From Nitrososphaerota archaeon (GTDB taxonomy: Archaea > Thermoproteota > Nitrososphaeria > Nitrososphaerales > UBA57), in assembly GCA_002713205.1 (NCBI GenBank), contig PAVW01000006.1, positions 30,001 through 62,000 of the forward strand: a stretch of DNA of 32,000 nucleotides. The letters run 5' to 3'. The position numbers and the translations under genes were made by a program. The notes under the pieces are model-generated. The model worked only from the letters and a program-made list of their open reading frames with translations, searched no databases and was not told the origin of the DNA. Positions 5,301-9,145 of this stretch are shown in pieces. Each line of letters starts with the position of its first letter. Position 1 is the first letter of the stretch.

Positions 5301-6756
5301 ACGTAGTGTATCAGAACTAATACGTGAATTTGGAGTTATGGGTTGTGCAAATAGTAACAATATTATAGAAGGAGACTCAAGAACAGCACAAATACTATAT
5401 GGAGGTTTATTGAGATCAATTGAAATTGAAGTAAGACCGGTTATAGGCATCTTAGGTACGTCGACAAATATGATTTCGCCAAATGTTGAATTACATGCAT
5501 GGCTTGAAGTAAAATTAGATAACCAGTGGATAATTATCGATCCATCAACTGGGATAATGTCTATTGATTTAATACTGCCGGAGAATGTACAAGGAGAATT
5601 TAATCAACGTGAGATATTCAATGCAATACCAGAGCAAGGTGGAATATTATCAGCTATGATGTATAAATGCATTACGATATGTAATATAGATATAACTGAA
5701 TCATACAGTGGAAAAGTGCCAATTTTTAATCCAGGGTCAATGATTTTTGTAGAAGGAGATGTAAATGTGAATATAATAGACTCAAATCGTAATTTCATCA
5801 CTAATGGAACTTTAGTTACATATTCATGGTCAGAGAATAATCAAGAAGAGAGTTTATCAAGATTTGTAAAGTTAATTATGTTGTCAGAAGGTGTAGATCT
5901 GCAATATATAACAATAAACATAGAAGGGCAATTGGGAAAACAATTTCAACTAAATATATTGAATTCGATTAATTTTGAATATAAAGTAACTTCTATTTCA
6001 CCGACTTTATTTTCAAAGTCGGAAGTAGAATATAAAATTCAGATAGAAGGAAATAAATTATCAATATATGAATTTGTTACGTTGGAATTCGAAGAAAATG
6101 AAATTGATATTATATCAACTTCATCAATAATTAGAGAAAGTCAACAAAGAAGATTAACGGCAATAGAAATTACAGTAGCTGGTAATAAAGGCAATACAGG
6201 AACAGTGATAATAAGCATACCTAGAGAAATATTTTCAGAACTGAATTCAGAATCAACAGATATAATTGTAATAATAGATGAACAAAGAGTACCGGTAGAA
6301 ATAATAGATGATGAATTAATACCAATAATAAAAATAAATTACATATTTAATATGGAAAAAGAAATTCAAGAAAAAAGAATCATAGTTTTCTTAAAAACAT
6401 ATAAAGTTTCATTCGAATTGAGAGATCCACTAAATAGAATAATTAATAATGCCGAAATAAAAATGATCGGGGAAACTGAAAATAGAACGCAAATAAGTAA
6501 CCAACCAATATTTGAACAACTTCATCCTGGGAATTACAAATTTACAATTAATTATAGAGGCGAATTAGAAGAGATTTCAAAACGAATTAATGATGATGAT
6601 ATAAACGTTAGAATTAATTTATTTAGATCAGATTCTATGGTTAGTTTCATAACAGCAGGTATTTTTATAATAATTGCAGTAATATCCTTCGGTATACAAA
6701 TTGCTCTTTCAAAAGTAATACCTGAAGATAAAAAGAAATCAGCTTCGGGTTCTTAA
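2326..6756 (+). CDS. Giant (1476 aa) membrane-anchored surface protein with multiple Ig-like modules, InlB-B-repeat-like motifs and a transglutaminase-like core
   Basis: N-terminal signal-peptide-like segment MKENLVLFCLICLILSLQTVIIVPTSQG. C-terminal TM helix (VSFITAGIFIIIAVISFGIQIAL) followed by a basic tail. Serial ~100-aa beta-rich modules resemble CARDB/Big-type domains (e.g. ITATIKDGNGIVISGANVTLSFSGGSGSF...TDSNGKF). Three copies of a Y-[KG]-F-x-x-W motif (RYKFNSW, RYKFQNW, EYGFKQW). Transglutaminase-like G-x-[C>S]-R...HAWxE...D core around 5290-5560. Confidence 0.8.
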   Translation: MKENLVLFCLICLILSLQTVIIVPTSQGESDEISIDAIPSEYIVITKGSSGTITLDITKVNSTLGSGNPIRTVSISVENLPTGSSASVSSPFSTSVFVGVTSYNLDVTITAPLSVESGSYNVVFRATLDKDSEDVNTNDVTKTVTVYISDFELSTSSSTVTLMPGESEEIVLTAKSLNNFSGSVDVILPTVTGAVIENLGSLNVPEGTQDTTNIRFTINSNAVENGNGVPVDIKTKVGNLERIITITLKIIPNTLQIELTADPNPVVIFQESVITATIKDGNGIVISGANVTLSFSGGSGSFSNSLSSIAGITDSNGKFSDQFEVIKGVVIIKAETSKTNYGTSSTTITLGTKGHFELSVEPDSNIINAGDQKTLTVSVRSIDGFNSPVKLSYAGGGIGISVEFTSSDIITPPPNETSEASVLITLSNSVDPKLYSVQLIGVDTITGELSKTATFSIDVPEVDIAITITPSKQTINQGDIALFNITLLSLGGFQSDGVTLKTDLPDDMEVTFIPNPVTLEPGGNRKLQLRIETNDNTNPIDEYPIIIAATSLNSETTITAYLTVKELFDVFFDSTHRIGGEELAVVKIFVDGFPIQEEDLPAHRKYVEGTNITIKILNNIVDEEKGVRYKFNSWNDGSVSVERKITVDRSSTFRAEFDKEFLLELKTTPIGVTKPLGDGWYKEYTEVSINTMPIVDITDTSRYKFQNWDGAILAKNERTDIVMDAPKQIFANYILQYRISRTVEPEFLKNLINLSEKEWVDRGAQIDLVADEKVNEYGFKQWIIESSLGRESIINNPWKISVNEPINIILEYQLLPDVQIVSVNMANNGFEGEFSHMWLNLANNHLRGGDIIIKVETSIDGLVITPLKIEMFIDANEEKTISFMINYTKQGSGTIKFTLEKTAQMESKEFYKEFKIFSQNEKRIVINMGKSLSAKHLPEFNSLMEPNDRVIICATEIIEQTMLQESATELEKARLILKFLSSRIISVPEIQPRSVSELIREFGVMGCANSNNIIEGDSRTAQILYGGLLRSIEIEVRPVIGILGTSTNMISPNVELHAWLEVKLDNQWIIIDPSTGIMSIDLILPENVQGEFNQREIFNAIPEQGGILSAMMYKCITICNIDITESYSGKVPIFNPGSMIFVEGDVNVNIIDSNRNFITNGTLVTYSWSENNQEESLSRFVKLIMLSEGVDLQYITINIEGQLGKQFQLNILNSINFEYKVTSISPTLFSKSEVEYKIQIEGNKLSIYEFVTLEFEENEIDIISTSSIIRESQQRRLTAIEITVAGNKGNTGTVIISIPREIFSELNSESTDIIVIIDEQRVPVEIIDDELIPIIKINYIFNMEKEIQEKRIIVFLKTYKVSFELRDPLNRIINNAEIKMIGETENRTQISNQPIFEQLHPGNYKFTINYRGELEEISKRINDDDINVRINLFRSDSMVSFITAGIFIIIAVISFGIQIALSKVIPEDKKKSASGS

Positions 6757-8158: not shown

Positions 8159-9145
8159 ATGAAAAGTAATCAAACAATCAAATATGATTCAATCATGGTT
8201 GATGAGAACGGAGTAAAAACAAAGGGCAGAATACATGTATCGAATGTAAGTTTATCCTTTGAAAGAAAAATTGGATTAATATCAAAAAAATTTGAACCGA
8301 TGTTAAAAATTCCAATCGAATCAATAACGTCTTTTAATAAAAAAACATATTTTGAAATAAGTCTTAATTATGTAATTTCAGATCAAAAAGTAATAATAAA
8401 TATTATTTTTAATACTCCCGCAGAAGTAATAGAAATAATAGAAAAAATTAATTCTTTGAAAAGTAATCTGGAAATCAAAGAGGAAAGAAACCAACAATTA
8501 GAACAAGATAATAAGATAAATAAAATAGATTATTCAACATATATTTATGATACTAGTTTCAAAATTTTATCAATAATATCAATAATATTTGAACTTTTAA
8601 AAGAAAATACAAATAGTAATTGGGATAATGTAGATAATGAATATAAAAAATTTAATGAATTAATTGCATCACTTGAAAATAATAATATAAATCTAGTACA
8701 AGATTCTACAAAAATAAAATCTGCACTTCAAACTAGAGATACTGAGAAAATATTTAATTCAATGAAAGCAAGTATTAGAACACTGGGAAACGTCTTAGAA
8801 TCAGAAATTCCATACAAAGAATGGAATGAATATGATAATTCAATAAAACCAAGCTGGAACAATATTCAAATATTTTATTTATTAACACTATCATTGAATC
8901 AAGCTATATATTTTTCTAAATTAAATATTGATTTTGATAAAGATAAAACATTAAACAATATATTCAAATATATTCCAATTGTAAATTCAAATTTTTCAAA
9001 TATAGCATCGTATGATAAAGATGAAATATCGAATAAGATGATAAAGGATGATCCTGAAATATTAAAAGAAATAATCACACAAATGTCAATGAATTTACAA
9101 AAGAATGTGAAAGAATTATTAAAGCAAGCAAGCTTATTATCCTAA
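8159..9145 (+). CDS. Hypothetical protein with an N-terminal GRAM/PH-like domain and a helical C-terminal domain
   Basis: 328-aa ORF starting at an ATG. KGRIHVSNVSLSFERKIGLISKKFEPMLKIPIESITSFNKK resembles the G-x-L-Y-[ILV]-[ST]-x-x-x-[ILV]-x-F...[IV]-P-[LI]-x-x-I core of GRAM/PH-like domains. It is followed by a capping helix (AEVIEIIEKINSLKS). The remainder is Asn/Lys-rich and predicted helical. Its stop overlaps the stop of the convergent 821-aa gene by 4 nt. Confidence 0.4.
   Translation: MKSNQTIKYDSIMVDENGVKTKGRIHVSNVSLSFERKIGLISKKFEPMLKIPIESITSFNKKTYFEISLNYVISDQKVIINIIFNTPAEVIEIIEKINSLKSNLEIKEERNQQLEQDNKINKIDYSTYIYDTSFKILSIISIIFELLKENTNSNWDNVDNEYKKFNELIASLENNNINLVQDSTKIKSALQTRDTEKIFNSMKASIRTLGNVLESEIPYKEWNEYDNSIKPSWNNIQIFYLLTLSLNQAIYFSKLNIDFDKDKTLNNIFKYIPIVNSNFSNIASYDKDEISNKMIKDDPEILKEIITQMSMNLQKNVKELLKQASLLS

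Follow-up and report, generated by a model that had tools for sequence, protein, structure and literature searches.

What becomes of an FtsZ-like protein whose guanosine triphosphate (GTP)-binding loops have eroded, and what could a genome gain by keeping it? This question is raised by a minus-strand gene, here called gene E, in a 32,000-nucleotide stretch of a Nitrososphaerota archaeon genome (assembly GCA_002713205.1, contig PAVW01000006.1, positions 30,001 to 62,000; hereafter the window). The open reading frame (ORF) listing contains at this place a 473-aa ORF at 6739..8160 (-), which a first-pass annotation had read as a second FtsZ-like paralogue, bearing a zinc ribbon, of a 901-aa protein encoded nearby (gene B). 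Translation mapping returned this ORF and all the quoted motifs at the positions collected in Table 1. We report here that gene E encodes a predicted tubulin-superfamily protein of 445 aa, most likely a pseudo-GTPase, within a conserved module of five genes (A to E).

Taken alone, the gene E protein showed only a sub-threshold match to the Pfam family Tubulin (PF00091; E-value 0.051, 14.3 bits against a cut-off of 33), and gave no phmmer match in the PDB and no match in NCBIfam. A profile of nine close homologues had as its best PDB match only a beta-tubulin at an E-value of 0.025. Searched against 1.84 billion representative proteins, this clade profile found 102 representatives, 26 of them below 1e-30, and many of the matches were full-length (420-460 aa), shared the zinc motif and had GGGTGSG intact (P0061 at 5e-75). 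The profile of a 56-sequence family alignment (A2) matched FtsZ (1.8e-20), CetZ (2.8e-19; 4b45 and 4b46 at about 1e-19) and other solved superfamily members in the PDB, and 43 of the 56 sequences matched PF00091. An AlphaFold model based on the nine close homologues only was unusable, with a predicted local distance difference test (pLDDT) score of 50; the 56-sequence alignment was required, and yielded a pLDDT of 87.8 and a predicted template modelling score (pTM) of 0.82. Foldseek comparison of this model with the PDB revealed 1,061 matches at E<=0.001, the top ones being gamma- and beta-tubulin and CetZ, with E-values of 1e-13 to 1e-14 and template modelling (TM) scores of 0.56-0.72 over about 450 aligned columns. 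Gamma-tubulin 3cb2 was the best match (1.9e-14, TM 0.63-0.65), followed by beta-tubulins, and CetZ 3zid reached a TM of up to 0.72. The model confirmed a predicted complete two-domain fold of the tubulin/FtsZ superfamily over the whole length of the protein, consisting of a Rossmann-like nucleotide domain, the core helix H7 and a C-terminal domain.

The matches of the family profile and the model to FtsZ and tubulin are significant, which settles in favour of the first-pass annotation its own reservation that no such fold match might exist. However, its label FtsZ-like proved too narrow, because the T5 motif and the C-terminal helices are of the tubulin/CetZ type. The T5 segment reads PSTTDTDQIQFNA, in contrast to the FtsZ-type PFxFEG, and the model ends in two long C-terminal helices like those of tubulin and CetZ. 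In addition, no FtsZ equivalog of NCBIfam matched the protein, and FtsZ_C of Pfam matched neither it nor the 56 family members. The product of gene E is a cytoplasmic 445-aa protein on a separate branch of the superfamily.

The nucleotide loops were mapped by adding a manually entered E. coli FtsZ sequence as reference to A2 with MAFFT, and the mapping was cross-checked against the HMMER alignment to an FtsZ chain. In these alignments only the glycines of T1 remain. The canonical GVGGGGGN of T1 reads GIGLYGSQ, in which G-x-G-x-x-G is kept, and G69, G71 and G74 are invariant in alignment A1. The loops T2, T3, T4, T6 and T7 are degenerate: the NTD of T2 is replaced by GSS, the GAG of T3 is lost (…NLWS…), the GGGTGTG of T4 has become LGEPLVS, the ND of T6 reads GN, and the NVDFAD of T7 corresponds to INNLSR, without an acidic residue and with a register uncertain by +/-1 residue. 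The erosion of the GTP signature and of T7 noted in the first-pass annotation is therefore borne out, and extends to T2, T3 and T6. Within the degenerate T4, G171 and E172 are invariant in the clade, with the conserved Glu standing at the second glycine position of GGG. All 12 orthologous loci keep the zinc ligands and read (L/I/M)GE(P/T/N) at T4, so the LGE(P/T/N) substitutions came through the conservation check proposed for them. The placement of a Glu within the glycine run that cradles phosphate argues against canonical GTP binding, and the loss of T2, T3, T4 and T6, together with the missing catalytic acids of T7, which in active GTPases promote hydrolysis by the adjoining subunit, suggests that the protein most likely neither binds nor hydrolyses GTP canonically and is a pseudo-GTPase.

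A second candidate for a nucleotide-binding loop was considered and rejected. The segment GIDRSGKT (minus strand 7405-7428, residues 245-252 when counted from ATG 8076) conforms to the Walker A pattern [AG]xxxxGK[ST], but its K and T vary among homologues (GIDRSGQT, GIDRSGRR) and it lies at the T6-H7 junction, where G(I/V)(D/G)R(S/x)G forms a conserved motif specific to the family.

The N-terminal motif reads CPDGH-x8-CATC, that is C-x3-H-x8-C-x2-C with ligands C20, H24, C33 and C36; the spacing had been given as x10 and is corrected here. All four Cys/His ligands are invariant in alignment A1, in about 25 distant cluster representatives and in 12/12 orthologous loci, and the motif thus withstood the conservation check suggested for it. 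Distant members read CPxGH...(A/S)KFCGxC, and 2 of the 56 family members match Zn_Ribbon_1 (PF13240). In the model this region is formed by short beta strands, with a pLDDT of 87-89 over residues 21-40. Sequence and model together describe a predicted zinc ribbon of two knuckles, with the four ligands carried on a pair of beta-hairpins.

Pairwise comparison with two relatives revealed dN/dS values (ratios of nonsynonymous to synonymous substitution rates) for gene E of 0.20 against locus L013 (dS 0.25) and 0.09 against locus L015 (dS 0.59). Constraint is strongest on the C-terminal domain (0.09 and 0.06, respectively), and the N-domain gave 0.26 and 0.11. Gene E is a functional gene under purifying selection. 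The loss of the catalytic motifs, and an apparent frameshift elsewhere in the window (in hisS, near 1672), might suggest a functionless relic decaying into a pseudogene, or a local sequencing artefact. However, 12 independent loci each carry the ORF intact and share the eroded motif, and the dN/dS of 0.09-0.20 is that of a constrained gene; therefore it is neither a sequencing artefact nor a pseudogene. Many invariant blocks, the retention of the gene in genomes of about 1 Mb and a model that folds at high confidence point the same way, and we consider a relic or artefact effectively refuted, with next to no probability left.

In a crude neighbour-joining tree of the family, the zinc-ribbon clade with the eroded T4 falls within a set of zinc-ribbon proteins that have GGGTG[SA]G. 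This clade comprises the window protein, P0003, a heterotrophic marine Thaumarchaeota clade (58-59% identity), P0056, P0057, P0059 and P0060. Its nesting among relatives that keep GGGTGSG indicates that the loss of T4 is derived. The first-pass annotation had taken orthologues with an intact GGGTGSG as a possible sign of a local sequencing artefact; instead, all orthologues are eroded and only distant relatives are intact, as a derived loss would leave them. A second eroded clade lacks the zinc ribbon and reads WDGIGSA or GEGVGSA at T4. A search with P0086 was made for this clade as the possible FtsZ of ammonia oxidisers, a candidate that was dropped: the two named members found are both Bathyarchaeota. 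On these sequences, the GTP signature was lost at least twice within the module. Two family members bearing GGGTGSG come from Dehalococcoidia bacteria, and the nine genome loci of gene E in GTDB species representatives all belong to uncultured Thaumarchaeota. The orthologues at 58-59% identity include the metagenome-assembled genome (MAG) ASW8, of heterotrophic marine Thaumarchaeota with genomes of about 1 Mb.

Two minor observations concern these homologues. In P0045 and P0051, from the heterotrophic marine Thaumarchaeota, an eight-residue unit, STESTSND, lies between the T2 and T3 regions, and the copy number of this low-complexity unit varies between near-identical orthologues of 439, 447 and 455 aa, which marks a tolerant surface loop of the N-domain. 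Loci L002 and L003, on two contigs of one MAG (CAZKFJ01), are 100% identical across the 21 kb compared, which indicates assembly redundancy and not gene duplication.

The start of gene E required separate consideration. Its in-frame ATGs lie at 8160 and 8076, and the former shares one CATG with the ATG at 8159 of the divergent gene D; these positions and the 82-bp spacer left by ATG 8076 are as first described. The first-pass annotation had called the start ambiguous and the 28 additional codons either a spurious extension or a membrane anchor. All 58 homologues except P0001 are 411-463 aa when full length and start at the equivalent of Met29; P0001, which is 99% identical to the window protein and has the same length of 473 aa, is the sole homologue with the extension. 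In addition, L013 and L015, the two closest relatives with DNA compared (89-90% aa identity), carry stop codons in the extension frame. The stops in these relatives and the starts of the homologues argue that ATG 8076 is the start, and the ambiguity is not real as far as the sequences tell. On the same two grounds the membrane-anchored form was rejected. A protein started at ATG 8160, with its hydrophobic N-terminal 28 residues as an anchor, would be in keeping with the open frame in the window and with the database protein P0001, but it would also leave no room for a promoter between the divergent genes D and E, and its extension reached no transmembrane-like hydropathy score; we regard this form as scarcely credible and the extension as spurious. 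The DNA at 8077-8158 is conserved above the synonymous sites of gene E in an alignment of the regions upstream of it in the window, L013 and L015, and bears AT-rich TATA-like elements on both strands. The spacer is thus probably a conserved divergent regulatory region with promoters.

Table 1. Gene E, its motifs and the other genes of the module in the window
Feature	Position	Strand	Basis or remark
Gene E, 445 aa: tubulin-superfamily protein with zinc ribbon, nucleotide loops degenerate	6739..8076	-	Predicted true coding sequence, ATG 8076 to stop
T7 position, degenerate: INNLSRI where N-x-D-x-x-D is expected	7240..7260	-	Profile alignment to FtsZ NLDFADV
T4, degenerate: TGLLGEPLVS where GGGTG[ST]G is expected	7549..7578	-	Alignment
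T1 loop/G-box 1, GIGLYGSQ, G-x-G-x-x-G retained	7849..7872	-	Aligned to E. coli GVGGGGGN
Zinc-ribbon-like knuckle pair C-x3-H-x8-C-x2-C, CPDGHKNVRGLDDCATC, N-terminal	7969..8019	-	Translation mapping
28-codon upstream extension, MLILSNISIVFTYFWKNYLYHYVVSIID	8077..8160	-	Predicted noncoding; within the divergent intergenic/promoter region
Divergent intergenic spacer between genes E and D, 82 bp	8077..8158	.	Assumes ATG 8076
Gene D, 328-aa cytoplasmic protein, possible PH/GRAM-like N-terminus, helical C-terminus	8159..9145	+	Alignments A3 and A5; synteny
Gene C, ~790-820-aa polytopic membrane protein with ~430-aa cytoplasmic helical domain	9142..11607	-	Hydropathy; synteny
Gene B, 901-aa FtsZl1/Tubulin_2-type protein, T1 GLGGTGAN and T4 GLGGGSGSG intact	11543..14248	-	PF13809
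Gene A, 309 aa: signal peptide, beta-rich extracytoplasmic domain, one transmembrane helix, short cytoplasmic helical tail	14257..15186	-	Alignment A4; hydropathy; first gene of the module

Gene E lies at the end of a module that is rich in membrane proteins. Gene B matches PF13809 (E-value 3.4e-10, 40.1 bits against a cut-off of 27), and its T1 and T4 are conserved among orthologues (alignment A6). Its FtsZ-like domain is followed by a long region which we read by eye as coiled-coil or helical, and its profile matched CetZ weakly in the PDB (E-value 0.0099). Gene C has at least 7 hydrophobic segments at aa 83-383, and orthologues of 773-817 aa occupy the same position in other loci. Its ORF opens with GTG 11607, overlapping the end of gene B by 65 nt with no ATG available; its real start is probably TTG 11511, 31 nt after the stop of gene B, a spacing like that in locus L001. 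The PH-like assignment of gene D comes solely from a weak match of its profile to the bacterial PH-like protein 3dcx of the PDB (E-value 0.14). No vWA match in Pfam and no Walker A motif was found in genes A, C and D, in a Pfam-level search at which remote homology is possible. A defence-system or phage origin is without support: 0/5 module proteins, gene E among them, matched in PADLOC or PHROGs.

The window is collinear with L001 and L007 over genes for aconitase, a flavin reductase and an SLOG protein, genes A to E, a gene for a 1476-aa, probably secreted, transglutaminase-like protein and hisS. The module was seen in ten loci (the window, L001, L007, L008, the P0060 contig, L011, L016, L017, L018 and L019) from Thaumarchaeota, Bathyarchaeota, another archaeon and two bacteria, and its core (B, C and E, joined by A and/or D) is found again beside gene E relatives down to 21-31% identity. 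The distant loci are those of a groundwater sample (L011), a Dehalococcoidia member (L016), a bacterium with DnaE and RecA (L017), the archaeon of L018, where the order is C-E-A-B, and the Bathyarchaeota clade (L019), in which the eroded form without a zinc ribbon still adjoins B- and C-type genes. The 8.4-kb module is retained in the heterotrophic marine thaumarchaeal genomes of about 1 Mb despite genome reduction. Gene B, which keeps T1 and T4, is 41-51% identical to its non-thaumarchaeal orthologues, against 24-28% for gene E, and 45-51% identical between the window and L016 and L017. Identity this high is unusual across domains and suggests that the module was transferred horizontally as a whole. 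Gene D points the same way as gene E in L011, L016 and L017, overlapping or abutting it so that D ends at the start of E, and is inverted in the thaumarchaeal clade (window, L001, L007 and L008), which created the divergent spacer and would give gene E its own promoter there.

How gene E relates to gene B was examined by hhalign. The two family profiles aligned over 58 columns only, around T4, and gene E was therefore rejected as a close paralogue of the 901-aa protein, as which it had been introduced. Neither is it a further FtsZl1: the 445-aa protein gave no PF13809 match and its model contains no long coiled-coil region. The FtsZl1 family (Tubulin_2, PF13809) of Makarova and Koonin 2010 combines an FtsZ-like domain with a coiled-coil and a helical domain, has a predicted role in membrane remodelling, and is found in operons with vWA proteins, a P-loop 'membrane-associated GTPase', OmpA proteins and kinases (PMC2875224). 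Gene B fits this family definition and its operon is likewise rich in membrane proteins; in Euryarchaeota, too, FtsZl1 operons open with a gene for a ~290-aa membrane protein, and that for FtsZl1 comes next. However, the described partners were not recognised in the present module, which contains instead a second tubulin-fold protein with a zinc ribbon, gene E, that is unlisted in PMC2875224. In the literature searched, FtsZl1 papers included, we found no description of a zinc-ribbon subfamily, of a pairing of B and E or of the five-gene module; coverage was incomplete, and 'undescribed' is thus provisional.

The closest parallel to the erosion of gene E is Nmar_1262, the 'FtsZ' of Nitrosopumilus maritimus, in which T4 reads AGKAGSA for GGGTGTG and the T7 loop is degenerate or absent (PMC3684127). 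Expressed in yeast, it did not polymerise even with GGGTG[ST]G restored, and the authors of that study and Pelve et al. concluded that it is not the division protein (PMC3684127). Both are thaumarchaeal tubulin-superfamily proteins with eroded T4 and T7 that are kept by selection. However, Nmar_1262 starts MSFQVKEPVLVVGLGGAGSKL, with T1 at about residue 12 and no zinc ribbon, and its T4 context (IVMMSNL-AGKAGSA-MAPVFQK) and C-terminus are unlike those of gene E; this comparison draws on fragments (primer sequences and a published alignment), not on the full-length protein. The fragments were in none of the 312 gene E-related proteins retrieved, including the 102 clade-profile representatives. 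In addition, N. maritimus and Cenarchaeum are absent from the published FtsZl1 list (PMC2875224) and therefore lack the partner gene B. On the sequences compared, gene E is a different protein, and the erosion is parallel.

CetZ is among the best profile and fold matches of gene E, and the T5 motif and long C-terminal helices are alike. CetZ proteins polymerise in a GTP-dependent manner, whereas the gene E clade has lost the GTP motifs, and the CetZ literature searched contained no zinc ribbon and no FtsZl1 linkage for CetZ. With the alpha/beta-tubulin pair and gamma-tubulin, the top fold match, the module may share a co-encoded pair in which one GTP site is intact and the other is deficient in catalysis. 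This is an analogy only, and B and E are not recent duplicates. Moreover, alpha- and beta-tubulin both bind GTP, and gene E appears not to. Non-canonical tubulin-superfamily proteins with an unassigned role have been reported from Thaumarchaeota, Bathyarchaeia and Korarchaeia (PMC9856176, PMC9723716). A large survey of the superfamily excluded Tubulin_2 proteins.

What, then, could such a protein do? Its gene neighbourhood makes a subunit of the module the most likely role, and on balance we lean towards a non-catalytic structural or adaptor subunit of this five-gene, membrane-associated module that most plausibly acts on B. The protein would act by protein-protein contacts and not by nucleotide turnover, with the zinc ribbon as an interaction module. 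It might dock on B to cap, nucleate or anchor B assemblies or, alternatively, bridge B to the membrane proteins C and A or to D. By analogy with the predicted function of FtsZl1, the module may build an envelope-linked cytoskeleton or a membrane-remodelling assembly. The conserved linkage of gene E to the 901-aa protein across phyla and domains fits a functional partnership without proving it. Several points weigh against a subunit acting on B. A conserved neighbourhood is equally compatible with any shared pathway, B aligns to E only around T4, and the published account of FtsZl1 found no recognisable T6-H7 elements in it (PMC2875224). The inversion of D in the thaumarchaeal clade would separate the transcription of E from that of A-B-C. 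The T1 glycines are kept and the N-domain is constrained (omega 0.11-0.26), so an unconventional ligand is possible. As to the evidence itself, the loop mapping rests on a manually entered E. coli FtsZ sequence, P0056, P0057 and P0060 of the clade carry a Glu near the T7 position, and the family tree is crude.

Two other functional readings have to be set beside an adaptor for B. Gene E might work within the module but not on B, either as a nucleotide-independent scaffold of its own or as an adaptor for C, D or the 1476-aa transglutaminase-like protein, with B polymerising independently. The overlapping or abutting D and E of L011, L016 and L017 suggest a coupling of these two genes, E adjoins C in L018 and L019, constraint peaks in the C-terminal domain and not on the nucleotide face, and B and E come from very different branches of the superfamily. 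However, of the neighbours whose function can be recognised only B is invariant, no protein of the module is better conserved, and the transglutaminase-like neighbour is confined to the marine clade; we therefore judge a role apart from B to be unlikely. A protein that is still regulated by nucleotide, with a remodelled pocket for GTP or some other nucleotide whose binding makes it polymerise or switch conformation, would explain the invariant G-x-G-x-x-G of T1, the highly conserved tubulin-like T5 (PSxxDTDQxQFNA) and the purifying selection on the N-domain. This seems more improbable still, since the loop chiefly responsible for binding phosphate, T4, has become LGEPLVS and carries an acidic residue within its glycine run, and the NTD of T2, the GAG of T3 and the Asn of T6 are gone. 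Nmar_1262 offers a related case, in which polymerisation did not return when GGGTG[ST]G was restored (PMC3684127). Nor does the Walker A look-alike GIDRSGKT help, being unconserved at K and T and placed in the T6-H7 region.

A wider proposal builds on the adaptor for B, and we offer it tentatively, as a possibility that is rather doubtful. The A to E module may represent an ancient and horizontally mobile 'two-tubulin' membrane machine of TACK archaea and Chloroflexota, in which an FtsZl1 GTPase is paired with a zinc-ribbon partner of the tubulin/CetZ type that at least twice became nucleotide-free and would cap, nucleate or anchor its active partner. If true, prokaryotes would possess an equivalent of catalytic/non-catalytic tubulin pairs or of templating of the gamma-tubulin type. 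FtsZl1 has been predicted since 2010 to drive membrane remodelling, and no functional or structural follow-up was found in the literature searched. That several lineages of archaea and bacteria link FtsZl1 to particular membrane proteins and to another tubulin-fold protein, one that bears a zinc ribbon, provides a small and defined set of components, and the repeated loss of the GTP site in gene E while the module is kept amounts to a natural experiment on which subunit needs nucleotide chemistry. The 'FtsZ' that is loosely annotated in non-ammonia-oxidising Thaumarchaeota may be this module and not the division protein.

Downstream of gene E, the 1476-aa protein encoded at 2326-6756 (+) has a transglutaminase core (PF01841) and Ig-like domains (Big_1, sub-threshold), and by eye both its N-terminus and a C-terminal stretch are hydrophobic. 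Its gene converges on gene E and overlaps the 3' end of the latter by 18 nt. It stands beside gene E in all marine-clade loci (L001, L007, L008, L013 and L015) and is absent from the distant loci.

The neighbouring hisS (962-2290, plus strand) shows an apparent frameshift near 1660-1690 at an A-rich run (…aatgataatataaaaaatag…). The first 236 aa are read in one frame (962-1672) and the C-terminal part with the anticodon-binding region in another, and the orthologue in L001 is intact with 435 aa. The break is likely a sequencing or assembly error, a genuine frameshift being possible.

Distant relatives with GGGTGSG, of the WPxxxExxQRHFNA type, were found at a different kind of locus (L020, around P0112), where two tubulin-family genes (404 and 410 aa) lie among genes for large uncharacterised proteins, with no Tubulin_2 gene. 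The flanking domains of unknown function (DUFs) suggest that this locus is haloarchaeal, and it is possibly one of the loci published as 'Halo.Tub' or CetZ-like adaptin-type.

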